Of a stretch of DNA of 64,000 bases, positions 2,086-60,938 are shown one piece after another. Numbering within the stretch: the first letter of the stretch is position 1; every line of letters starts with the position of its first letter. The DNA is from a virus, in IMG/VR virus record IMGVR_UViG_3300049259_000288, positions 12,961 through 76,960 of that record; one strand, written 5' to 3'. Both the position numbers and the translations under genes were made by a program. Under the pieces are notes generated by a model. The model was given only the letters and a program-made list of their open reading frames with translations. It ran no database searches and was not told where the DNA came from.

Positions 2086-2210
2086 ACACGATCGAGAAGG
2101 CCATCTACACCGCCGACCGCGTGCTCACCGACAGGTTCCGCATCTGGTGGCGGCGGCGCCACGGCATCTACACCATCGGTCGATGGAAGTACCCGTGGCG
2201 ATCCTCGTGA
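2082..2210 (+). CDS. small basic hypothetical protein
   Basis: ATGA overlap with the sigma stop; 42 aa. Confidence 0.45.
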   Translation: MNTIEKAIYTADRVLTDRFRIWWRRRHGIYTIGRWKYPWRSS

Positions 2211-2226
2211 CGATCGCATAGACGCC
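2204..2226. repeat. left arm of long-range inverted repeat bounding the tRNA operon
   Basis: CTCGTGACGATCGCATAGACGCC is the reverse complement of 7541-7564 (14-bp perfect core, one mismatch, one bulge). Confidence 0.85.
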
Positions 2227-2302
2227 TGGCTCGGGGAGCACGGTTCGAACGTGCATCGTCCTGATCCAAAGTCAGGCGTCTTTCCGCTTAGACCACCCCC
2301 GA
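2227..2302 (-). tRNA. tRNA-Gln(TTG)
   Basis: CCTGA-CTTTGGA-TCAGG; TTCGAA T-loop; encoded CCA. Confidence 0.92.
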
Positions 2303-2380
2303 ACGAAGAACCAGCAAGGGGGTCCCTTTCGGGACCCCCAGGCCGGGATAGAGCACCGCCTCGCGGCGGGGGCTTCGTAG
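2303..2380 (-). ncRNA. structured spacer (two GNRA hairpins in a closing stem); ncRNA or processing element
   Basis: ACGAAG/CTTCGT closes CCGCC-GCGA-GGCGG and GGGGGTCCC-GAAA-GGGACCCCC. Confidence 0.4.
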
Positions 2381-2391
2381 CGCAGGTGATC

Positions 2392-2940
2392 CTACGCGAC
2401 GGCGCCGGCGACGTTGTCGATGGGGAGGTACGGGGCCCACGTCGGGTTGGCCTCGCGGATCCCCATGAGCAACCAGTACGTGCCCGTCGGGACGTAGGGC
2501 TTGAACGCGAGAACCCAGTCCATCTCGGCCAGCGTGTGAGCGGCCTTCCGCGCGTTGCACGGACGGCACGCGGCCACGACGTTGGTCCAGGTGTGCCGGC
2601 CACCCCGCGACCGCGGGTGAACATGGTCGACGGTGGTGCCGCGCCGCGGCGCCCACTGCCGTTCCCCGCGGTGGTTCTCGGGGATGCAGTAGGCGCACCG
2701 GTGCTCGTCACGCCGCAGGACCGCGGCGTTCGACAGCGCGATGCGCGCGGTGTACGGCACCTGCACGTACTTCCGCAGGCGGATCACCTCGGGCACGGGC
2801 ACCGAGGCGCGTGCTGAGTGGTAGGCGTCGTCACCGGCCTCGAGCACCTCGGCCTTCTCGGCCATGACGAGCACGACGGCCCGGCGGGTGTCGATGATCC
2901 GAAGCGGGGTGTAGTCAGCATTGATCAGCAGGGCCGCCAT
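2392..2940 (-). CDS. HNH endonuclease (actinobacterial McrA-like)
   Basis: LLINADYTPL...VLRRDEHRCAYC...TVDHVHPRSRGG.HTWTNVVAACRPCNARK. Confidence 0.92.
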   Translation of the reverse strand: MAALLINADYTPLRIIDTRRAVVLVMAEKAEVLEAGDDAYHSARASVPVPEVIRLRKYVQVPYTARIALSNAAVLRRDEHRCAYCIPENHRGERQWAPRRGTTVDHVHPRSRGGRHTWTNVVAACRPCNARKAAHTLAEMDWVLAFKPYVPTGTYWLLMGIREANPTWAPYLPIDNVAGAVA

Positions 2941-2956
2941 CTGCGTCTCCTTTCCT

Positions 2957-3688
2957 TCATCGTTGGCGCGCCCTTGTTTGCGCATCCAGTCGTTGTTGTC
3001 GTTGGACCGGGTCGGCCCAAACCTTCCGCTGTGCCTCGGCCATGCGCGCGCGGGTCTCCTCGCTCACGACCCGCGCGGTGTTCATCTGCGCGATGGCTTC
3101 CCGCTGCGTCTCGGTGCGCTCGTAGCGCCCGACGCCAGGCGAGGGTCCGTTCCTGGCGTAGGTTGCACGCAGGGACGCAGCGATCTTGGACCGGGTCTCA
3201 TCTGAGAGCCGTCGCCCGGTGTTCGACCTGGCGATCTTCGCGATGACTTCGGGCGCTCGTGGGCGGTCTTTGAGCGTCGCGCGTATCTTTTCGCGAACCA
3301 CCGTGGGCATGGGCCCCTTGGGCTTGCCCCTTTGCCAGGCTGACATCTTCGCCTTTGTTGACACGGAGTGGTGATGGCCTGTCAGACCTTCGCCGCCATC
3401 CGTGTGATTCGTGAGTCGGGCTACAGCGCGGTAGTGCTGGATCCAGTGGCGTTCGCGAGCGGCCCAGTCCTCGCGACCGTCTACGACCTCCACGAGCTGG
3501 ATGATCGGCGGCGAGTTGTCTGCGAGACATCTTCTGATCCACCGATCACGATGGGTGGAGGTTCGACCGGATCGCGCAGACCAAAGGTGGTAGGCGAGCC
3601 GGTCGCCCAGTGGCTTGACGGTCTTTCCGACGTACCGGATTTCGTTGGAACGCTGGTCGATGAGCACATAGATGGACGTGGGTTGCAC
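2957..3688 (-). CDS. GIY-YIG homing endonuclease with NUMOD3 repeats
   Basis: IYVLID...IRYVGKT...RL.YH...E..WI..Y...LTN.TDGGEG; HSVSTKAKMS and LSDETRSKIA repeats. Confidence 0.88.
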   Translation of the reverse strand: MQPTSIYVLIDQRSNEIRYVGKTVKPLGDRLAYHLWSARSGRTSTHRDRWIRRCLADNSPPIIQLVEVVDGREDWAARERHWIQHYRAVARLTNHTDGGEGLTGHHHSVSTKAKMSAWQRGKPKGPMPTVVREKIRATLKDRPRAPEVIAKIARSNTGRRLSDETRSKIAASLRATYARNGPSPGVGRYERTETQREAIAQMNTARVVSEETRARMAEAQRKVWADPVQRQQRLDAQTRARQR

Positions 3689-4557: not shown

Positions 4558-4646
4558 TGGTTGGTGCGGCTGCCCACGCTCGTCAGCGCGAAGCATCACG
4601 GCAGGGGCTCTCCCGATGCGCTCGGGCGCCTTTCTCAGCCGCACCA
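4558..4646 (-). ncRNA. CCA-ended non-cloverleaf RNA with 11-bp terminal stem
   Basis: TGGTGCGGCTG/CAGCCGCACCA followed by ACCA; two internal hairpins; no T-loop or anticodon arm. Confidence 0.55.
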
Positions 4647-4647
4647 G

Positions 4648-4719
4648 TGGAGCCACGGAGAATCGAACTCCGACCTTCGCCATGCCATGGCGGCGTGCTG
4701 CCACTATCACTATGGCCCC
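4648..4719 (-). tRNA. tRNA-Ala(GGC)
   Basis: G3-U70; loop ATGGCAT. Confidence 0.9.
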
Positions 4720-4721
4720 GT

Positions 4722-4780
4722 AGAACGTGCTCGGCCCGGCTACGGATCCCTTGGGATTCCGACCGGGCCGAGACGCTTCT
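4722..4780 (-). ncRNA. long imperfect hairpin between tRNAs
   Basis: CTCGGCCCGG/CCGGGCCGAG 10-bp core, extended at both ends. Confidence 0.4.
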
Positions 4781-4788
4781 CTCGCAAA

Positions 4789-4867
4789 TGGTGGCAGGGA
4801 GAGGATTTGAACCTCCGACCTCCGGGTTATGGGCCCGGCGAGCACATCCAGGCTGCTCCACCCTGCG
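4789..4867 (-). tRNA. initiator tRNA-fMet(CAT)
   Basis: 1:72 mismatch; GGG/CCC anticodon stem; loop CCCATAA. Confidence 0.9.
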
Positions 4868-4912
4868 TCGCTCTTGAGACGATACGCCTTGGCGCCGGCG
4901 TCGTCCAGTGTT

Positions 4913-4986
4913 TGGTACCGGTGCTCGGAGTCGAACCGAAGTCCGCGCGGGTATGGGCCGCACGTCGCACGCCTGTCATCACCGGC
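4913..4986 (-). tRNA. tRNA-Met or Ile2 (CAT), atypical D-arm
   Basis: TGCGG-CCCATAC-CCGCG; TTCGAC; ACCA. Confidence 0.75.
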
Positions 4987-4987
4987 A

Positions 4988-5013
4988 TGAACCTTCTCGT
5001 CGATGTCGCCGAT
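4988..5013 (+). promoter_or_regulatory. sigma-28-type promoter firing antisense inside the tRNA array
   Basis: TGAA-N16-GCCGATCG; GTG at 5023. Confidence 0.7.
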
Positions 5014-5022
5014 CGACGGGAT

Positions 5023-5145
5023 GTGAAGCTGAGCTCGCGTGCGGTCACCAACATCCTGACGATCATCGTGCTGATCGTGGCGCTGCTGCCGCTCGAGGTG
5101 TGGCTCCTCGACAACATCTTTCACTTCGGATACAGCGGCGACTAG
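5023..5145 (+). CDS. small single-pass membrane protein
   Basis: VKLSSRAVTNILTIIVLIVALLPLEVWLLDNIFHFGYSGD; fills the gap between two tRNAs. Confidence 0.65.
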   Translation: MKLSSRAVTNILTIIVLIVALLPLEVWLLDNIFHFGYSGD

Positions 5146-5146
5146 A

Positions 5147-5220
5147 TGGGGTGACCGAGCGGAATTGAACCGCCATCACCAGGGCCACAACCTGGCGCTC
5201 TACCATTGAGCTACGGCCAC
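5147..5220 (-). tRNA. tRNA-His(GTG)
   Basis: CCAGG-TTGTGGC-CCTGG; C73 plus CCA; no genomic G-1. Confidence 0.92.
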
Positions 5221-5222
5221 AG

Positions 5223-5295
5223 TAGGCGTGGGGGGAGTCGAACCCCCGCAACACAGCGTGTGGAGCTGCTGCTCTGGCCACTGAGCTACACGCCC
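5223..5295 (-). tRNA. tRNA-Val(CAC), C33
   Basis: GCAGC-TCCACAC-GCTGT. Confidence 0.88.
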
Positions 5296-5304
5296 GAGAA
5301 CTGC

Positions 5305-5381
5305 TGGTGCCGGCAGCGGGGATCGAACCCGCGATGCTGTCCGCTTAAAAGGCGGCTGCCTTGCCACTCGGCCACACCGGC
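5305..5381 (-). tRNA. tRNA-Lys(TTT)
   Basis: CCGC-CTTTTAA-GCGG; ACCA. Confidence 0.82.
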
Positions 5382-12361: not shown

Positions 12362-13038
12362 CAGTAGCCCGTCCCTGCTCGTTCGTCGCCGATGTGCAGC
12401 ACCTTCGGGGGATCGAACTTCTTGCCCCAGAAGGCGAAGGGGCAGCCGCGTCGGTGCGTGAGCAGTCGGTGCGTGAACGCGCCCTCGCTGTGCTCGCCAT
12501 CAGGCCAGCCTTCGCGCAGCAGGGCGCGATGGTAGACGGACGGGTTCGTGGTGAAGAACCGGCGGTGTGCTGTCCACCACGACTCGCCGTCGCTCATCTG
12601 GAAGAAGTCCTGCGGGTTGGCCTCGATGATGCCGCCGGCGGCCCGCTCGATGTCGTTCCACGGCTGGCGCTTGAGGGCGACCTGGACGAGCTCACGCTGG
12701 CGGATCAGCAGGCGCTCCATGGCCACGACGTTGATGTCCTCGGTGAACACGAAGTCGTCCTCAAGGTGGAAGATGAAGTGCGAGTCGCTCGAGGCGAGGT
12801 AGGCCCAGGCTGAGCGGATGGCGCCGCCGAAGCCCGAGCGGCCGGGTGTCGAGATGATCGTGAACTGGGGGAACTGCTCGGCGAGCCACGCCCGGTAGTC
12901 CGGGTCGCCGGAGTCGTCGTGGATGATGCGCTCGGTGAACGGCAACGCCTCGGCGCGGAGGTGCACGAGCGCCGAGTGCAGCGTCCGGCTGATGCAGTCG
13001 CGACGGCCGTCGGTCATCACCAGCAGCGTCGTGCTCAT
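12361..13038 (-). CDS. GT-A fold glycosyltransferase
   Basis: LVMTDGR...IIHDDSGD...FIFHLEDDF...FTTNPS. Confidence 0.85.
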   Translation of the reverse strand: MSTTLLVMTDGRRDCISRTLHSALVHLRAEALPFTERIIHDDSGDPDYRAWLAEQFPQFTIISTPGRSGFGGAIRSAWAYLASSDSHFIFHLEDDFVFTEDINVVAMERLLIRQRELVQVALKRQPWNDIERAAGGIIEANPQDFFQMSDGESWWTAHRRFFTTNPSVYHRALLREGWPDGEHSEGAFTHRLLTHRRGCPFAFWGKKFDPPKVLHIGDERAGTGY

Positions 13039-48094: not shown

Positions 48095-48614
48095 GCCTCA
48101 CCGTCACCGTCGTCGACAACGAGACCGGCGACACCGACAGCGCCCAGGTGGCCGACGGTGACTATGTACTGATCTGCGCTGCGCCCTGTCATCTTGCGCA
48201 CACGCAGTCGTATCCGACCAAGGGCACGCACGTGCTCACCGTGAAGGGACGGCTCGGTGCCCTGGGGTGAGGAGCACAAGCCGATGAACGGCGGCGCCGG
48301 CACCACCGGCGAGATCGAGGACGCGCACGCGGCGCTCGACGTCTACGACGTGCCGCGCGGCCCGCTTGCGCTGCGCGTGTTGCACTTCATCGAGCGGATG
48401 AAGCCGTGACCCCGCGCGAGTTCCGTCGCGAGACGCTCGGCGAGTTGAAGCCCGACGGTCGCGGGCATCTGTTCGAGCGAAGCGTCGAGAACGACATGCC
48501 GGTGCTGCGCTGCATGTACGGCGACTGCGGGTTCATCTGGTGGCCCGACGAGCATAAGCCCAGCAGGGAGTGCCGATCGGAGATGGCACCAGGACGCACG
48601 CTGCCGGGACGCAC

Positions 48615-49364
48615 ATGACCGCGCCGACGCCGAAGCATCCGGCCCGGTTCTCGGACCCGATCATGCCGGTGCTCGCCAAGTTCGTGGAGCCCGGTTGGAC
48701 CGTGGTCGACCGGTTCGCCGGCACTGGGCGCGTCCACGAGCTGCGCGACCTCGTCCCCGGCGTGCACACCTTCGCCGTCGAGATCGAGTTCGAGTGGGCG
48801 GCGATGCACCCGTCGACGTGGTGTGGCGACGCGTTCGAGATGACCGGCGAGAACCGCTACGACGCCGAGGTCACCTCGGTCACCTACGGCAACCGGTTCG
48901 CCGACTCACACAACGCGCAGGAACGCTGTCGGGCGTGCAAGGGCACCGGGTGGATACCGATCGCGAGTGGCGCGCCGGCGGAGCCATGCGAGAAGTGCGA
49001 GGGCACCGGCACCCGGAACCATCACCGCCGTTCGTACACGCACAACCTTGGGCGCCCTCTCACGCGCGGCAGCAGCGGGTCGATGCACTGGGGCCAGGAC
49101 TACCGCGCGTTCCACACGAAGTGGCTCGAGTCGAGCTTCACGCTCGTGCGCCGACGGCTGGTCCTCAACGTGAGCGACCACATCCGCGACAAGAAGCGCC
49201 AGCCTGTCGTCCGCTGGTTCAGGAACACCGCACGCGAGGTGGGGTTCACGCTCGTGGCCGAGCGCAGCATCGAGACGAAGCGCCTGCGCGACGGCGCGAA
49301 CCGCGAGTCGCGCGTCAAGTACGAGAAGGTCCTGGTGTTCGACAAGGAGGCAACCGATGGGTAA
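48615..49364 (+). CDS. DNA amino-methyltransferase-like protein with inserted CxxCxGxG zinc finger
   Basis: HPARF, VVDRFAGTG motif I, TSVTY at the motif IV position, LVLNVSD. Confidence 0.7.
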   Translation: MTAPTPKHPARFSDPIMPVLAKFVEPGWTVVDRFAGTGRVHELRDLVPGVHTFAVEIEFEWAAMHPSTWCGDAFEMTGENRYDAEVTSVTYGNRFADSHNAQERCRACKGTGWIPIASGAPAEPCEKCEGTGTRNHHRRSYTHNLGRPLTRGSSGSMHWGQDYRAFHTKWLESSFTLVRRRLVLNVSDHIRDKKRQPVVRWFRNTAREVGFTLVAERSIETKRLRDGANRESRVKYEKVLVFDKEATDG

Positions 49365-49737
49365 GGCCGCACGACTCAAGCGCGAGCGCCGAGCGCGCGG
49401 CACGGCCGACATCGAGGTCGTGTGCCCGGGGATGCTCGAGATCCTCAGTGTTGGCAAGGGCGACATCAAGCTCACGATCGACGGCAGCAACGAGGGCGAG
49501 GTCAACGACGCCCGCACGATCATCGAGGAGATGCTGGCCAAGGGCTACGGCATCTTCGTGGAGACTGACAAGGGGCTGACGCGCGTCAAGAAGTTCAATC
49601 CCAAGCGCATGACCTACGTGATCTCGGAAGTCGTCGAGAACGCCGAGGAAAAGCCGCTCGGCAAGCGCACGCGCGAGAAGCACGTTCCTGTCGCCGGCAC
49701 GAAGGCCAAGGCCATTGGCAGGACGGCGGGCGGATGA
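49357..49737 (+). CDS. small protein ending in di-glycine (candidate ubiquitin/Pup-like modifier)
   Basis: AGGAGG RBS; C-terminus AIGRTAGG*. Confidence 0.75.
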   Translation: MGKAARLKRERRARGTADIEVVCPGMLEILSVGKGDIKLTIDGSNEGEVNDARTIIEEMLAKGYGIFVETDKGLTRVKKFNPKRMTYVISEVVENAEEKPLGKRTREKHVPVAGTKAKAIGRTAGG

Positions 49738-49867
49738 TGTTCCGGCTCTCGATTTGGCGGCACAAGCGACGTGGTCACACCCAGACGTGGAGCCGCGTCA
49801 CGATCCCGGTGACGTCGCCCGACCGCGGTGACCTCGTCCGGTGCTCGTGCGGCGAGGTGTGGACCCG

Positions 49868-50677
49868 ATGACCGACGTCTCGACGTACATGCGCCAGGCC
49901 CGTGCCCGCCGCGGTGTCGACCCGCGCCAGAAGGACGGCTGGACCTGGGATGAGTCCCGGGCGTGGATCGACGCGCTCTCCGATCACGTCGGCGAGTGGC
50001 AGGGCATCCCCATCCCGCTCGGTGCGGACAACCCGCTGGTCCTCGCCGAGGGCCACCCGCTGCGCGACTTTTACGCCAAGGAGCTCGGCCAGGCTGACCT
50101 GACCGACGTGGACATCATCGTCGCTGGCGGCGAGGTGCCCGAGGACGAGGAGATTGTCAACACCTGGTTCTCCCGGAGGCGCAACGCCCAGGTGTACGTG
50201 GCCCGCGGCGGCGGCCGCTACTACGCGTTCGTCGTGCCGGTTTCCCCGGACCGCTCCATGGATCGCCTGACCTTCTGGCTGCAGACGATCGGCTCGGCCG
50301 ACGCGTGGGACCTCGAGGCTGAGTACCGGGCCCGCGACACGCTGCGGGCCATGCTCACTGAGCGCCAGTGGATGCACTACGACCTCACCGGCTGCTTCTT
50401 CGAGACGTCTCCGCGCTCTCGCGTCACCTACGTGTTCCGCCGGCTGCGCCCAACGCTCGCGCTGAGCCCTCGCGGCAGGGATGGGCGCGTGGGCAACATG
50501 CTCTGCCTTGCCGTGCTCTGCCTGCATCCGATCGGCTACTACGCGAACAGCTGGGCGGGCTGCATGGTGCCGAGCGACGACGTGATCGCGCACCTCAGCT
50601 GGATGCGTGGGGATGAAGCAGCGTTCTGGAAGCACGCCAACCAGCACGACCCGGCTTCGCCCGAGGCCGGCATCTGA
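49868..50677 (+). CDS. hypothetical enzyme with LCLHP and PSDD motifs
   Basis: A..TL..ML...Q...Y..TG.F.E...YVFRR..PT...LCLHP..YY..SWAG.M.PSDD..A.L...RGDE..FW..AN.H. Confidence 0.75.
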   Translation: MTDVSTYMRQARARRGVDPRQKDGWTWDESRAWIDALSDHVGEWQGIPIPLGADNPLVLAEGHPLRDFYAKELGQADLTDVDIIVAGGEVPEDEEIVNTWFSRRRNAQVYVARGGGRYYAFVVPVSPDRSMDRLTFWLQTIGSADAWDLEAEYRARDTLRAMLTERQWMHYDLTGCFFETSPRSRVTYVFRRLRPTLALSPRGRDGRVGNMLCLAVLCLHPIGYYANSWAGCMVPSDDVIAHLSWMRGDEAAFWKHANQHDPASPEAGI

Positions 50678-51020
50678 TGGCCGAGACGTTCCTCTGTTCC
50701 TGCGGCGCAGCGGCAAAGGCATCCGGCTACCCGCCCGCCCAGGCGGAGGCGATCATCGCCGAGCTTCGACGCATCCACGTCGAGGACGAGGGCCACCATG
50801 AGGTGGAACCGAAGGAACACAAGCGGATCCGCGAGCGTCAGCGCCGCGATGAGATCAAGGGGCTCTATGGCTGAGCGATGCAAGGTGACCTATCCCGACG
50901 ACGCGACCGTGCAGTGCCTCAAGAAGGCCGACGAGCCCGGCACCGGCAAGCACGAGCACTACGGCAAGGACTCACAGGGCTTCGAGTACACGTGGCGCGA
51001 CGTGCCGACAGGTGGCTTCG

Positions 51021-51299
51021 ATGCCTGACGATGACGCAGCGAAGATGAGCCACTGGAACTACCGCACCTTCGTGCGCACGTTGCCGACCGGCGCCGGCGA
51101 CTACGAGGACCAGTTCTTCATCGGCGAGGCGTACTACGACGACAACGGCAACGTCATCGCGTGGTCGTCTGAGCCGTCATGGCCGTCGGGCACGACGAAG
51201 GTCGAGTGCTATGACGACCTCGCTCGGATGATGGAGTCCATGGGCAAGGAGGTGCTCGTCCTCGACGAGCTCGAGCGGATCGTCCAGGTGATCGAGTGA
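51021..51299 (+). CDS. hypothetical protein
   Basis: WNYR...I.EAYYD..G. Confidence 0.6.
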   Translation: MPDDDAAKMSHWNYRTFVRTLPTGAGDYEDQFFIGEAYYDDNGNVIAWSSEPSWPSGTTKVECYDDLARMMESMGKEVLVLDELERIVQVIE

Positions 51300-51535
51300 A
51301 CCTCTACGACCTGGCCTCCACGATCGCCTACATCCTCTCGGACGACGGCCCGTTCAGTCGTCTCGACCCGACCAACCTCGTCATCGAGTTCATCCCTGGC
51401 TGGGGCTGGCATCCATGCGACGAGGAGTACTACTACCTCGGTCCGGCCGACATCAGCGTCGAGATCGGATCGGATGAGGACTACGGCACGCTCATGGGTC
51501 ACAACATGCTCAGCAAGTGGAAGGACATGGAGTGA
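51296..51535 (+). CDS. acidic hypothetical protein
   Basis: GTGA coupling. Confidence 0.55.
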   Translation: MNLYDLASTIAYILSDDGPFSRLDPTNLVIEFIPGWGWHPCDEEYYYLGPADISVEIGSDEDYGTLMGHNMLSKWKDME

Positions 51536-52254
51536 ACCCGACGTCCGCCAACTACTGGCTGCCGCTCATCGAAGGTGCGGGCCTTCCGGTTCCCCGGACG
51601 CTCACCGTCGACAGCTACGACCACCGCGCCATGCTCGGCGTGTTCTACGGCGAGGACTGGGACGGCTACGACGCGTTCTCTGAGGACATCTGCAAGGCGG
51701 CGATGGACGTGGGCTTGCCGGTCTTCATCCGCACCGACATGGGCAGCGCCAAGCACAACGGGCCCGTCTCGTACCGGCTCGATCGCGCCGAGCCGATCGT
51801 GCTCACACCGCTGCTGCGCGATCTCGTCGAGGACCAGGAGTCGAAGTTCTGGCTCGAGCCCGACGCCACTCCGAGCACGATCCTCGTGCGCCGGTGGCTG
51901 GACCTCGACGCGTCCTTCGAGGCGTTCGGCTGGCGCGGCAACCCGGGCCATCCCATCGCGCGCGAGTGGCGGCTGTTCGCCACGGCCGAGGGCGTGGAGT
52001 GCGTGCACTTCTACTGGCCCGAGCACGCCATCGAGGAGCACAACCCCACCGAGGAGAACTGGCGCGAGCTCCTCGCTGAGATGGCGAGCGAGCCGGTGCC
52101 GGCGGAACTGACGGAGGTGGCCGTCCGGGCAGCCGCCGTCTGTGACGCGTGCCCGATGTGGAGCGTCGACTTCGCGCAGGACATCCACGGTCGCTGGTAC
52201 CTGATCGACATGGCCGAAGGCGACAAGAGCTGGCACCCGGAGCACGATGGCTGA
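51532..52254 (+). CDS. ATP-grasp fold protein (R2K/Cdc123-like)
   Basis: LPVPRT, PVFIRTDMGSAKH, ILVRRWL, REWRLF, WSVDF...WYLIDM. Confidence 0.7.
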   Translation: MNPTSANYWLPLIEGAGLPVPRTLTVDSYDHRAMLGVFYGEDWDGYDAFSEDICKAAMDVGLPVFIRTDMGSAKHNGPVSYRLDRAEPIVLTPLLRDLVEDQESKFWLEPDATPSTILVRRWLDLDASFEAFGWRGNPGHPIAREWRLFATAEGVECVHFYWPEHAIEEHNPTEENWRELLAEMASEPVPAELTEVAVRAAAVCDACPMWSVDFAQDIHGRWYLIDMAEGDKSWHPEHDG

Positions 52255-52480
52255 GGACGAGCTTCGGTACCTGCCGTCCGTGGACGAGGAGGTTGTGCTC
52301 ACCGTCGTGCCATACGTGGTGCTCGCCATCGTCCCGCTGCTGCTGATCCTCATGGCGTGGCCGCTCATCGGGCACGTGTTCGCACTCGCCTCGTCGATCA
52401 CCGTCTGGCCGATCTGGTACGGCTTCAAGGGGCTGCGCTGGGTCTACCGGCGCGTCATGGGAAGGGATGACGATGCCTGA
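52247..52480 (+). CDS. membrane protein
   Basis: Two hydrophobic segments. Confidence 0.6.
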   Translation: MAEDELRYLPSVDEEVVLTVVPYVVLAIVPLLLILMAWPLIGHVFALASSITVWPIWYGFKGLRWVYRRVMGRDDDA

Positions 52481-52889
52481 GAGGATCCAGCTTCGGCGCA
52501 CGAAGGGATGGCGAAAGCCCGACGGCGCCATCGTCGTGGCGCGCCCGTCGCGGTGGGGCAACCCGTTCATCGTCGGCGAGGAGGTCGACATTGGCCACGC
52601 CGGCTACCAGGGCTGGTCGGTTGGTTGGGCGGGCGATCCCGATGAGCAGGAGGCGTACTTCGATCTGCACGAGACGGTGAAGATCACGCCGGAGATCGCC
52701 GTCAAGCTCTACCGCGTCGACCTTCTGCTCGGGCTCATGAAGTACCCGAAGGACCACCCGGAAGACCGGAAGCGCCGGGATGCGCTCGAGGTCGCACTGA
52801 GTCAGCTTCGTGGCCATGACCTGGCGTGCTGGTGCCCAGGCGATCAGGCGTGCCACGCCGACGTTCTCTTGGAGATGGCCAATGGGTGA
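52473..52889 (+). CDS. DUF4326 family protein
   Basis: RIQLRRTKGWRKP...RPSRWGNPF...LRGHDLACWC...CHADVLL. Confidence 0.85.
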   Translation: MPERIQLRRTKGWRKPDGAIVVARPSRWGNPFIVGEEVDIGHAGYQGWSVGWAGDPDEQEAYFDLHETVKITPEIAVKLYRVDLLLGLMKYPKDHPEDRKRRDALEVALSQLRGHDLACWCPGDQACHADVLLEMANG

Positions 52890-53277
52890 CAAGACGAAGG
52901 CCGGAACCGACGACCTTCTCGCCGAGGCGGCGCGCGATCCCTGGGCCGCGACACAGGAGTTGGCGGATCGTCGGCACCACGAGCTCGCCGTCGAGCACGA
53001 GCAGACGTTGCGTGAACGCGAGGCCCATCGGCACGAGCGACGGACCATGCTGTGGCATGGCGTTGGCTACGCGCTCGTCGTGCTCTCGGTGCTCTCGGTG
53101 TTCGTCATCATCGGCGCCGTGATCTACGGCTTTCACCACAGCGACCAGGTAGAGCAGGTCAAGGTCGAGGAACAGCGCACGGCGCGCGTCAAGCAGTGCC
53201 TCTCGTTGGAGGACACCGCCGAGCGCGAGCTCTGCGTCATCGGTTCCGCATCCGAATCAGCGCCGGGAGGCAAATGA
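52882..53277 (+). CDS. membrane protein
   Basis: Single TM. Confidence 0.6.
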   Translation: MGDKTKAGTDDLLAEAARDPWAATQELADRRHHELAVEHEQTLREREAHRHERRTMLWHGVGYALVVLSVLSVFVIIGAVIYGFHHSDQVEQVKVEEQRTARVKQCLSLEDTAERELCVIGSASESAPGGK

Positions 53278-53990
53278 TGTTCGAGCGTTTCAACAACAAG
53301 GCGCGTCGAGTCGTGGTGCTCGCTCAGGAAGACGCGCGCCTCCTGGACCACAACTACATCGGCACCGAGCACCTGCTGCTTGGGCTGCTCCACGACGAGG
53401 AGGAGATCCCGTTCCAGGTGCTCGCGGAGTTGGGGCTCACGCTCTTCCCGGCCCGCGAGGCTGTTGAGGCGCTCATCGGACGCGGCACCGAGTCGCCCCC
53501 TGGCCACATCCCGTTCACGCCGCGCGCCAAGAAGGTCCTTGAGCTGAGCTTGCGCGAGGCGCTCCAGCTGGGCCACAACTACATCGGCACGGAGCACATC
53601 CTCCTCGGCTTGATCCGCGAGGGCGAGGGTGTCGCCGCCAAGGTCATCGTGGGCGCCGGCATCGACCTCGCTGCGGTCCGCCAGGGCGTCATCAAGGTGC
53701 TCACCCAGCGATCGCCGTTGCCGTCGCCGGTATCGCACCCGTCCTCGGGAGACGCGCGGCTTGAGATGCTCGAGAAGCGCCGGACCGATCTGGTGGCGCG
53801 ACTGCACGAGTTCGTCGACGCCGCCAAGCACGCCGCGCCCGAGGTGTCATGGGACCTTCGCAAGGTCGGCAACCTCACCGTGGTTCGCCGCGTCACCTCG
53901 GAGATCGTGGCCACCTTCGCCGACCCGATGGACGCCGCCGCCGTGATGGAGAACCTGCTGCAGCGGGAGCGGGAGGCCGAGGCCGAGTGA
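53274..53990 (+). CDS. stand-alone ClpC N-terminal (double Clp_N) domain protein
   Basis: MFERF...ARRVVVLAQEDAR.L.HNYIGTEHLLLGL...GHIPFTPRAKKVLELSLREALQLGHNYIGTEHILLGLIREGEGVAA; no AAA domain. Confidence 0.93.
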   Translation: MMFERFNNKARRVVVLAQEDARLLDHNYIGTEHLLLGLLHDEEEIPFQVLAELGLTLFPAREAVEALIGRGTESPPGHIPFTPRAKKVLELSLREALQLGHNYIGTEHILLGLIREGEGVAAKVIVGAGIDLAAVRQGVIKVLTQRSPLPSPVSHPSSGDARLEMLEKRRTDLVARLHEFVDAAKHAAPEVSWDLRKVGNLTVVRRVTSEIVATFADPMDAAAVMENLLQREREAEAE

Positions 53991-54176: not shown

Positions 54177-54686
54177 GTGAGCAAGATTGAGTGGAGAACG
54201 TCGATGGTCGCTGGCTACGACGTGTCCAGGGACGGGCAGGTGCGATCGTGGCGGAATCGCCATGGTGGTCGTCGTGAAGAGCCCGTCATCCTGCAACCAC
54301 TTCGATCGAAGAGCGGTCACCGATACGTCTTGCTACCGCCGGAGGTCGGGTCACGGTCGCGAAAGTTCTGGGTTCATCACCTGGTTCTCGTTGCCTTCGT
54401 CGGACCCCGACCAACTGGCCAGGAAGCGCGACATCTCAACGATGACCCCGACGACAACCGTGCCGAGAACCTCCTGTGGGGCACGCGATCAGAGAACCAG
54501 CGCGATGCCGTTCGGAACGGCGGGCGCCGCACCGGCGCCGCTGCTGACGGGGCGACGCTGACGATCGAGCAGGTTCAGGTCGTCCGTGCCTCACGACGTC
54601 CATCGCGAGCGGTCGCGGCTGAACTCGGGGTGAGCCATACCACCATTCAGAAGGTGCGTCGAGGAGATCGGTACCGCTGTGGCTGA
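54177..54686 (+). CDS. NUMOD4/HNH homing endonuclease
   Basis: YDVSRDGQVRS...VHHLV..AFVG.RP...RHLND...DNR..NL.WGT...N. Confidence 0.88.
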   Translation: MSKIEWRTSMVAGYDVSRDGQVRSWRNRHGGRREEPVILQPLRSKSGHRYVLLPPEVGSRSRKFWVHHLVLVAFVGPRPTGQEARHLNDDPDDNRAENLLWGTRSENQRDAVRNGGRRTGAAADGATLTIEQVQVVRASRRPSRAVAAELGVSHTTIQKVRRGDRYRCG

Positions 54687-55482
54687 CGGAACGAAGATCG
54701 AGTGGACGGACACAACGTGGTCGCCCGTCACCGGATGCGATCGCGTCTCGCCGGGATGCGATCACTGCTATGCGATGACGATGGCAGCTCGCCTCAAGCT
54801 CATGGGCTCGGCGAAGTACCAGCGCGACGGCGATCCTTCGACGAGTGGGCCCGGCTTCGGCGTGACCTTGCACCACGGCACCCTGCGCGCGCCCCTGGGC
54901 TGGCGCAAACCGCGGCTGGTGTTCGTGAACAGCATGAGCGACGTGTTCCATCCCGAGATCCCCGACGGCTTCATCGGCTCGATCTTCGATGTCATGGCGC
55001 TCGCCGAGCGGCACACCTTCCAGGTGCTGACGAAGCGGCCGCAGCGCATGGCCAAGCTGCTGCAGGCGTGGGAGGCCGACGGCTGCATGTGGCGGCGCGA
55101 CGACATGCTCTGGTGCGGGCCCGGGCCGTGGCCACTGCCAAACGTCTGGCTCGGCACCTCGATCGAGAACGACCGCTACACCTTCCGCGTCGACCACCTC
55201 ACCGACACGCCGGCAGCGTTGCGCTTCCTCAGCCTCGAGCCGTTGCTCGGTCCGCTGCCATCGCTCGACCTCACCGGCATCGGCTGGGTGATCGCTGGCG
55301 CCGAGTCAGGTCATGGCGCGCGGCCCATGGACGACGGCTGGGTTCGCGACATCAGAGACCAGTGCGTCGAGCGCGGCATCTCTTTCTTCTTCAAGCAGAA
55401 GGCCACCTCGGCCGGCCAGAAGATCCCGCTGCCCGAGCTCGATGGCCAGGTGTGGAACCAGATGCCCGCCCATGCCGCCTGA
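54679..55482 (+). CDS. DUF5131 / phage Gp37-Gp68 family protein
   Basis: TKIEWTD.TW.P.TGC..VSPGC.HCYA, FVNSMSD.FH, FQVLTKRP, LSLEPLLG, FFFKQ. Confidence 0.92.
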   Translation: MADGTKIEWTDTTWSPVTGCDRVSPGCDHCYAMTMAARLKLMGSAKYQRDGDPSTSGPGFGVTLHHGTLRAPLGWRKPRLVFVNSMSDVFHPEIPDGFIGSIFDVMALAERHTFQVLTKRPQRMAKLLQAWEADGCMWRRDDMLWCGPGPWPLPNVWLGTSIENDRYTFRVDHLTDTPAALRFLSLEPLLGPLPSLDLTGIGWVIAGAESGHGARPMDDGWVRDIRDQCVERGISFFFKQKATSAGQKIPLPELDGQVWNQMPAHAA

Positions 55483-60064: not shown

Positions 60065-60444
60065 ACGTGAGGGGACGGTTCGAGGCGGAGTTCGATAGCG
60101 CGATCGGCGACAAGCCATACGTCGCGACGATGCGTGTCGTCGCCTGGGACGATCGCGGTGAGGCCCTGGTCCTGTCCCGCAGCCGGCTGGTGCGGGCGTC
60201 CGACATCATGGGGTTCAAGGGAGTGTCGGAGATCGACGAGCCGATCGGCCTGTTGCCTGCTGGTGGGTGGCGAGTGCGGTGGCCGAACGACGACGGGTCC
60301 TTCGATAGCGAGCCCATCATCGGCTGGCTGGTCGAGACTGGCGGCTACGCGAGGGCGATCATCCCCGAGGAACCGGGGTCCGGTATCCCGGTGGACGCCA
60401 TCAAGGGCGGCGAGGTGTACCACACCGAGTCCACCATCAAGTGA
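60061..60444 (+). CDS. hypothetical protein
   Basis: AGGAGG RBS. Confidence 0.65.
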   Translation: MNVRGRFEAEFDSAIGDKPYVATMRVVAWDDRGEALVLSRSRLVRASDIMGFKGVSEIDEPIGLLPAGGWRVRWPNDDGSFDSEPIIGWLVETGGYARAIIPEEPGSGIPVDAIKGGEVYHTESTIK

Positions 60445-60938
60445 GCGACGCGCTGTTCACCGACACGTCGAAGGGCGCCACCTTTTCGCCATGCAGGACC
60501 TGGCGATATCGACTCTGGCGCGAGTGGCACCCGGGCCCGACCTTCGTCGTCGTCGGGCTCAACCCGTCGACCGCTGACGAGACGCAGGACGATCCCACCA
60601 TCCGTCGGTGCATCGGCTTCGCCAAGCGCGCCGAGTGCGGCCGTCTCGAGATGCTCAACCTGTTCGCGTACCGCAGCACCGACCCGAAGCTGCTGTACCA
60701 CATCACCCGGCCCGTCGGTCCCGGCAACGACGACACGATCATGGCGATCGCCGGCACGGCCAACGTCGTGGTGGCGGCGTGGGGTGCCGAGAAGATCGCT
60801 CAGCCACGTGCTGAGCACGTGCTCACGATGCTCGCCGACGCCGGCACGACGGTCCTGTGCTTCGGGGTCACTGCAGGGGGATCGCCGCGCCACCCGCTCT
60901 ACCTCAATGCCGACACCCCACTGGTCCCCCTCACCTGA
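60441..60938 (+). CDS. DUF1643 family protein
   Basis: RYRLWR.W...GLNPSTAD...DDPTIRRC..FA...NLFA.RST.P...AAWG...PRHPLY. Confidence 0.9.
   Translation: MSDALFTDTSKGATFSPCRTWRYRLWREWHPGPTFVVVGLNPSTADETQDDPTIRRCIGFAKRAECGRLEMLNLFAYRSTDPKLLYHITRPVGPGNDDTIMAIAGTANVVVAAWGAEKIAQPRAEHVLTMLADAGTTVLCFGVTAGGSPRHPLYLNADTPLVPLT

Follow-up and report, generated by a model that had tools for sequence, protein, structure and literature searches.

A protein with a highly conserved C-terminal Gly-Gly and its Cys-x-His partner form an obligate gene pair in uncultured phages

The window analyzed here is a stretch of 64,000 nucleotides (positions 12,961 to 76,960) from the 76,960-bp IMG/VR virus record IMGVR_UViG_3300049259_000288, which has an estimated completeness of 73%. 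We observe that a gene for a 126-amino-acid (aa) protein ending exactly in Gly-Gly (the GG protein) and the neighboring gene for a 269-aa protein (the partner, N278) form an obligate pair, irrespective of which of the two genes is used to retrieve related loci. The pair is best explained as a phage module of two proteins that is complete in itself and is expressed together with early DNA-metabolism genes. A preliminary description of this DNA had proposed a larger protein-tagging and proteostasis module, in which the GG protein and a Cys-His-Asp partner act with an R2K ATP-grasp and a ClpC N-domain. That interpretation is partly supported, in that the pair holds and the four-part module does not. 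The elements of the pair in the window are the following, including one open reading frame (ORF) in the spacer.

49357..49737, + strand: GG-protein gene, 126 aa, with an ORF and translation ending in ...AIGRTAGG-stop
49684..49734, + strand: codons of the conserved 17-residue C-terminal tail, VPVAGTKAKAIGRTAGG, with the chain stopping right after Ala-Gly-Gly
49738..49867, + strand: spacer of 130 nt between the GG gene and the partner gene
49734-49871, + strand: 45-codon ORF spanning the spacer
49868..50677, + strand: partner gene N278, 269 aa, with a longer ORF form opening at 49841
50516..50530, + strand: codons of L-C218-L-H220-P, the Cys-x-His(-Pro) candidate active site, at the end of the predicted fourth beta-strand

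The translated ORF has the 126-aa length and the ...GRTAGG-stop ending that had been described for it. A word-indexed search returned 197 homologues of the GG protein, and in 119 of the 120 homologues listed the chain has an exact GG terminus after a conserved VPVAGSKAKAIGRTAGG tail, the near-fixed form of which is VPVAG[ST][KR]A[KT]A[IV]GRTAGG. Loci fetched independently via the partner gene contain distant GG proteins with only 30-45% identity to the query, which still keep the tail and end in AGG-stop in 34 of 36 cases. Conservation of the GG terminus is far beyond chance, and the expectation that homologues would share it is confirmed in both sets.

With respect to its layout, the GG protein has four parts, namely, an optional Arg-rich or variable basic N-terminus, a conserved core of ~75 aa, a basic linker of very variable length, and the tail. 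Within the core, L30, G35-D36, G63-Y64, R76, F80, and Y87 are invariant, and a broad alignment places A124-G125-G126 beside core residues among the few columns that are at least 90% conserved. The linkers are rich in Lys, Arg, and Pro and carry RGRP AT-hook-like motifs in several members (e.g., P0100, P0120, P0075, P0097, P0113, and L057:4696-5118), with one family member matching Pfam AT_hook at an E value of 0.019; motifs of this kind hint at DNA binding. One clade has a single extra Ala after GG (P0086, L013, and L014), the chain extends past AGG by 20 residues in L063 (4714-5181) and by 9 residues in L080 (5168-5656), and in P0301 the sequence ...ARTAGG runs straight into the Met of the partner as an in-frame fusion. 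These rare read-on or fused members (L063, L080, P0301, and also P0275) could be natural precursors, pseudogenes, or assembly errors. A search for fused or tandem GG domains among longer homologues turned up only P0391, in which an upstream MT-A70 methylase is frameshifted into the GG gene, and a real fusion is ruled out.

The linkage of the two genes is found in both directions. When loci are retrieved through the GG gene, 29 have ≥400 nt of downstream sequence, and the partner adjoins the GG gene in 28 of them (3 of the 29 being the same contigs present in two collections). When the partner is used instead, a GG-family gene adjoins it in all 36 loci, which comprise 26 viral contigs and 10 contigs from metagenome-assembled genomes (MAGs). 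The GG gene is located downstream instead of upstream of the partner in 5 of these 36 loci, indicating that the linkage survives rearrangement. Furthermore, ORF clustering shows that the GG gene and the partner are the only genes common to all 42 neighborhoods. These counts uphold what had been singled out as the strongest link of the proposed module, that between the GG gene and its Cys-bearing neighbor, and show that the exact ...AGG-COOH end and the Cys-x-His site evolve jointly and inseparably. Across 42 pairs, no clear mutual-information signal links tail positions -6 to -3 to columns of the partner; the best values (0.27-0.34) are scattered, with phylogeny as a confounder.

In other loci, the spacing of the two genes varies from an overlap to ~1.3 kb. 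The 45-codon ORF that had been placed between them is present in the window; it is probably not a gene, because its 45-aa product has no tblastn match in 40 related loci, and it thus drops out as a member of the module. All genes around the pair are co-directional, as stated in the preliminary description, and neither a promoter-like site nor a +-strand terminator-like site is found in the interval 48300-51200.

The true start of the partner is at 49868, where its closest homologues begin (MTD[VI]ST...), and the protein consists of a variable N-terminal domain (residues ~25-125) followed by a highly conserved C-terminal domain (~125-269). We recovered 758 homologues in an indexed search and 581 clusters at 50% identity in an exhaustive HMMER search. 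The LCLHP (residues 216-221 of the 269-aa form), PSDD (235-238), and ANQH (257-260) motifs are all present as described, and the assignment of a Cys-His-Asp set is sustained across 270 sequences (C218 in 270/270, H220 in 269/270, P221 in 260/270, and D237 in 268/270). In the same sequences E152, S181, Y188, R191, P235, and R247 are also invariant, with E250, W254, and H260 being near-invariant, like D237. A second cysteine, C232, located 12 residues past His220-Pro221, is far more variable (Cys in 137, Ala in 70, and Val in 29 of the 270). The AlphaFold2 model of the partner has a predicted local distance difference test (pLDDT) score of 85.8. The partner also has a conserved C-terminus of its own, ...P-E-A-G-[LIV]-stop (window 50663-50677), which resembles the ...TAGG of the GG protein and might serve as a pseudo-substrate.

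The MAG contigs that carry the pair are labeled Pirellulales, Phycisphaerales, Burkholderiales, Vicinamibacterales, Sphingomonadales, Cypionkella, Acetobacteraceae, Myxococcales, and Proteobacteria, and the pair is also found on contigs labeled Planctomycetota, Acidobacteriota, Burkholderiales, Sphingomonadales, Rhodobacterales, and Myxococcales. Among 50,697 GenBank phages, tblastn found no match to either window protein and none to a Rhodobacterales-type partner, apart from one weak match leading to Virus Rctr197k (KX853510.1). This is the only GenBank phage record with a version of the pair, a distant one, encoded by genes 113 and 112 (both annotated as hypothetical).

2153-3405 and 4587-5324 of locus L120: distant pair of Virus Rctr197k

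In hhalign comparisons with Rctr197k, the small protein scores 79% and the partner 95.5%, the partner relationship being detectable by profile comparison only. Gene 113 ends in ...IPG, while gene 112 keeps LCVH, the Asp, and the DE..W motif and lacks H242. Gene 110 of the same virus is a second partner-like paralogue, also with LCVH, and a CRISPR repeat region is located ~1.2 kb upstream. Literature searches found no published description of the GG and partner pair.

Neither protein matches a family in Pfam, PHROGs, NCBIfam, or PADLOC, and neither matches PDB sequence profiles. At E values of ≤10, there is no Pfam match to a ubiquitin-like protein (Ubl) family in 32 GG-protein members and none to UQ_con, RWD, or Prok-E2 in 37 partner members. 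Foldseek found nothing in PDB at E values of ≤1e-3 and only unnamed relatives in BFVD, and the ESM Atlas yielded only unnamed viral clusters; these fold searches establish neither a beta-grasp for the GG protein nor an E2 or transglutaminase fold for the partner. Membership in the Ubl or E2 families is accordingly not established, and two defining features that were tested were not found. The Ubl-type exposed Gly-Gly at the C-terminal chain end is present, and so is the genomic coupling to a C-terminal-Gly protein that is typical of the E2 superfamily, in both gene orders; the Cys that E2 proteins carry ~8-10 residues past an HPN-like motif is absent.

Tentatively, and with less than even confidence, we propose that the tail enters the conserved domain of the partner and is handled covalently at Cys218, which would amount to ubiquitin-like tagging without a phage E1. 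In this proposal, the GG protein would be a globular core with a flexible basic linker that presents the invariant ...Ala-Gly-Gly carboxyl end, and the tail would thread into the C-terminal domain of the partner beside Cys218-x-His220 and Asp237. The terminal glycine would most likely form an acyl (thioester) intermediate on Cys218, from which the GG protein may be passed to an amine of a putative target, or the bond may be hydrolyzed. Activation energy could be supplied by the partner itself or by a ThiF/MoeB-type enzyme of the host, and ThiF-type E1 homologues that could be borrowed are found in all five pair-holding MAGs. Gly-Gly provides little binding energy but fits narrow catalytic channels, such as those of E1, E2, and deubiquitinases. 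By analogy, the extended and fused GG members recall Ubl precursors that need trimming and would fit a trimming activity.

The nearest working analogue is the stand-alone E2 of the E2-only (short type II) cyclic oligonucleotide-based antiphage signaling system (CBASS). This enzyme acts via Cys and His on the cGAS/DncV-like nucleotidyltransferase (CD-NTase), whose C-terminal Gly it both trims and binds covalently, and is thus a known case of such chemistry proceeding without an E1 (10.1101/2022.05.25.493364; PMC12948482). Like the pair, this system (Serratia CdnG/cGAS plus E2) has two genes and no E1, and some of its forms carry at least one residue past the Gly that has to be removed; the entry of a Gly tail into a Cys/His partner, shown for E2-only CBASS, is proposed for the pair. 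The two differ in that the Gly-ended protein of CBASS is a 400-aa nucleotidyltransferase serving host defense, whereas that of the pair is a 126-aa protein from a phage early region, and in that the pair has no effector gene. Furthermore, the partner has no Prok-E2_B profile similarity, and its invariant Cys stands before, not after, the His-Pro.

Other known systems share single features with the pair. Bacterial Bil/Bub (6E) operons and archaeal/eukaryotic Ub-E1-E2 cascades likewise place a small C-terminal-Gly protein beside a Cys-bearing partner, but Bil/Bub operons always include an E1 and usually a JAB, whereas ThiF is found in 0/30 and Prok-JAB in 0/5 pair records (10.1101/2023.09.04.556158; PMC11601596; PMC1779556). 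A predicted domain of the partner may weakly resemble the UBC/RWD fold, and no sequence similarity of the pair to the Ubl or E2 families of these systems was found. ThiS, MoaD, CysO, and TtuB are, like the GG protein, small, with an invariant ...GG-COOH and no E2/E3, and their E1-like activator is a host housekeeping enzyme; the GG protein differs in its long, variable, basic linker, and the partner is unlike MoaE, ThiG, CysM, and TtuA. In phages, TAPI (Ubl) and TAPK (JAB plus NlpC/P60) of lambda/T1 also combine a terminal-Gly Ubl domain with a peptidase-type partner in the absence of an E1 (PMC1779556). TAPI and TAPK are located in the tail-assembly cluster and have JAB/NlpC folds, whereas the pair is found among early DNA-metabolism genes, with Prok-JAB in 0/5 records. 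Pup resembles the GG protein in its flexible tail with Gly-Gly near the end, and the window is from a high-GC phage. The Pup chain closes with GGQ or GGE, and its ligation takes place through the Glu side chain. Unlike in the Pup-PafA/Dop system, nothing follows the GG of the pair, PafA/Dop is found in 0/5 records, and non-actinobacterial contigs carry the pair too.

Several observations weigh against covalent handling of the tail. The preliminary description had noted that the window lacks an E1 and PafA, and this extends to related phages: ThiF-type E1 (PF00899) is missing from all 30 phage records, 12 of which are ≥90% complete, and neither Prok-JAB nor PafA/Dop (PF03136) is found in the five records searched for each. 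The absence of an E1 from all 30 records leaves the activation energy without a recognizable phage-encoded source. By hhalign, the GG protein scores 0.9% against an 18-sequence ThiS/MoaD alignment (PF02597) and the partner 0.2% against a 9-sequence Prok-E2_B alignment, the latter comparison covering one Prok-E2 family. An invariant cysteine two residues before His-Pro is not E2-like, and C232, at the E2-like catalytic position, is replaced by Ala or Val in 99/270 partners. AlphaFold2 folds the tail as a beta-hairpin packed on the GG protein's own core, and if this placement is right the tail is partly structural. Finally, the basic AT-hook-like linker, together with DNA-modification neighbors, suggests a DNA-associated role in place of general tagging of proteins.

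The main rival explanation is a non-covalent complex without any conjugate, in which the AGG-COOH tail is a docking peptide that would block or control an enzyme, either the partner or one of the host. The GG protein would then be a small DNA- or RNA-associated beta-barrel and the partner a nucleic-acid or nucleotide enzyme with a metal bound by Cys, His, and Asp. We regard this as a serious possibility that is nonetheless doubtful. Exact C-termini are also kept in docking tails, such as the tip of the single-stranded DNA-binding protein SSB, PDZ ligands, and HbYX motifs. For the GG core, the best fold matches are Sm/Hfq-like, with the variable linker at the place of Sm loop L4, and the linker is basic with RGRP motifs in several members, as described above. 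On the partner side, four near-invariant Arg together with Ser, Thr, and Tyr are typical of phosphate binding, and the Cys-x-His on one strand could form a metal site with His242, His260, and Asp237; the Rctr197k homologue, however, loses His242 and keeps the Cys, His220, and Asp237. The genomic setting also fits a nucleic-acid role. DUF5131, a radical-SAM-superfamily family, is the commonest third neighbor of the pair (13/42 loci and 12/30 records), and the other recurrent neighbors are DNA methylases, ParB_N, DnaB, DUF1643 (6 loci), and DUF3850 (4 loci), indicating that the pair resides in a DNA-modification and replication region. Nevertheless, Gly-Gly is a poor docking determinant, and fold searches gave no known nucleic-acid enzyme fold.

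An improbable alternative is counter-defense: the partner would be a cysteine peptidase or trap specific for Gly-Gly, the GG protein would serve as a decoy substrate, and the two together would jam or reverse Bil/Bub or the Cap2 of type II CBASS. The position of the pair in the phage early region, the Cys/His/Asp set of the partner, and the existence of extended and fused precursors would be in line with this, and host Ubl defenses directed against phage proteins are known (10.1101/2023.09.04.556158). Such defenses are rare (Prok-E2_B in 9/401 genomes sampled), while the pair is far more widely spread and more conserved than typical anti-defense genes. One pair-holding MAG does encode a Cap2-like Prok-E2_B: the Acetobacteraceae MAG G033, which contains locus L078, has a stand-alone copy on contig C13:10981-11280. 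Searches with the partner detected none of the papain-like, OTU, JAB, or Ulp folds, and known cysteine peptidases do not place their Cys and His on the same strand with a spacing of two residues.

Equally slim is the chance that the GG protein is a sulfur carrier, which a host MoeB, ThiF, or MoeZ would adenylate and thiocarboxylate and from which the partner would receive the sulfur to thiolate phage DNA or tRNA. Small GG-ended proteins without E2/E3 are classically sulfur carriers (PMC1779556), ThiF-type host genes are found in 5/5 MAGs, and the neighborhood is one of nucleic-acid modification. The long disordered linker before the tail is unlike ThiS/MoaD, however, the hhalign score is the 0.9% given above, and the partner has no similarity to PP-loop, rhodanese, MoaE, or ThiG proteins. 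The very diverse hosts also count against a sulfur carrier, which would need one conserved E1 interface across all of them.

With respect to the other two parts of the module proposed earlier, both genes are present in the window, as described.

51517-52254, + strand: R2K ATP-grasp ORF, Pfam R2K_3 (PF14243) at 30.7 bits versus a cut-off of 26.3
53274-53990, + strand: stand-alone Clp_N gene with two Clp_N repeats, E value of 3e-31

The ATP-grasp ORF carries PVFIRTDMGSAK (FIRTDMGSAK), matching the F.R....S.K signature that had been reported for it, and its R2K_3 score is above the cut-off. The two Clp_N repeats likewise substantiate the stand-alone ClpC N-domain. The Clp_N protein has an unrelated tail of ~90 aa, and its gene shows 75.7% nucleotide identity over 355 bp to that of a "Clp family protein" of Mycobacterium phage Phabba. 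In the full model, the R2K ATP-grasp and/or the Cys partner would ligate the GG protein, and Clp_N would route tagged proteins to Clp/Pup. The four genes are co-directional within 4.6 kb, ATP-grasp chemistry can activate carboxylates, and R2K enzymes have been predicted to be peptide ligases (PMC4431377). However, the R2K ATP-grasp and Clp_N are found in only one of the five whole pair-bearing records, the one studied here; they are absent from the other four, two of which are complete, and neither is found in related loci. The missing co-occurrence largely refutes the four-part model, to which we now give next to no credence, and bears out the caveat raised at the time that the ATP-grasp and Clp_N may be mere neighbors, seen in this phage only. 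A Pup/Clp proteostasis reading is not supported for the same reason. The labeled non-actinobacterial phyla (Planctomycetota, Acidobacteriota, etc.) are not known to have Pup, and the presence of the pair on their contigs means that redirection of host Pup/Clp proteolysis, as had been suggested, cannot be its general function; the 0/5 result for PafA/Dop points the same way.

DUF5131 is encoded further downstream in the window, directly after an HNH gene.

54177-54686, + strand: HNH_3 gene, abutting the DUF5131 gene
54679-55482, + strand: DUF5131 radical-SAM-superfamily gene

In related loci, DUF5131 is interrupted by a LAGLIDADG insert in L047 (5233-7422) and by an HNH insert in L079 (6726-8120), and it is fused to ParB_N in L052 (1240-2700). 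As an obligate third component of the system DUF5131 was rejected, being missing from 5/12 near-complete pair-bearing genomes. The same absence counts against a glycyl-radical-like cofactor, in which DUF5131 would make a radical on the penultimate Gly of the tail for transfer to Cys218 of the partner. The glycyl-radical signature is [STIV]-x-R-[IVT]-[CSA]-G-[YF] at a hairpin tip, accompanied by a dedicated activase. The tail I-G-R-T-A-G-G fits six of its seven positions, the partner has an invariant Cys, and DUF5131 occurs in 12/30 pair-bearing records, often adjacent; the idea is nonetheless scarcely credible, given that the aromatic residue after the Gly is absent, the chain ends instead of forming a hairpin tip, the tail Arg is replaced in distant members (APTAGG and PHIAGG), many likely hosts are aerobes, and DUF5131, as a radical-SAM subgroup, clusters with spore-photoproduct lyase and not with activases (PMC9477430).

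The remaining genes of interest around the pair are the following.

48570-49364, + strand: methyltransferase-like ORF with an FAGTG motif and a weak PADLOC MTase_II match
52467-52889, + strand: DUF4326 gene, early block
60441-60938, + strand: DUF1643 gene, early block

The TAA stop of the methyltransferase-like ORF overlaps the start of the GG gene by 8 nt, and a DnaJ-type CXXCXGXG zinc finger is inserted in this ORF. A homologue of it is located directly 5' of the GG gene in L036, a position that is occupied elsewhere by N6_N4_Mtase (L012) or MT-A70 (P0391). The window has a G+C content of 63-71%, with structural genes at ~15-45 kb and a co-directional early/DNA-metabolism block from 45.6 kb. 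Among public sequencing runs, its DNA is matched in a single soil metagenome, which is probably the source sample, and no RNA run carrying it is found among the runs listed. The carrier of the pair is here an uncultured, high-GC soil phage.

A bolder form of covalent tagging at Cys218, which we consider rather unlikely, is that the pair represents a new virus-borne minimal tagging system, in which a protein of ~130 aa is attached covalently via its GG by one novel-fold enzyme of ~250 aa. It would act through Cys-x-His, with no E1 and no recognizable E2, JAB, or PafA, and its targets would be host or phage macromolecules, namely, proteins, DNA-bound factors, or DNA itself, the latter two being suggested by the AT-hook-like linker and the DNA-modification neighbors. 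Such a system, spread across phages of many bacterial phyla, would either have arisen independently or represent a far-diverged branch of ubiquitin-type chemistry.

Should the tail do no more than dock, the pair still constitutes a large and strictly coupled family, for which deletion of the GG and the C218A and H220A substitutions provide mutational handles. Its carriers are hundreds of uncultured phage lineages, judging from the 581 partner clusters, with labels from Planctomycetota to Proteobacteria. If the tail is handled covalently, these phages would have a ubiquitin-like system without a recognizable E1, which would bear on the minimal parts of protein tagging and on how E2-type chemistry arose. 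Such a system would, in addition, represent a new class of phage takeover or counter-defense tool and possibly a compact ligation tool.

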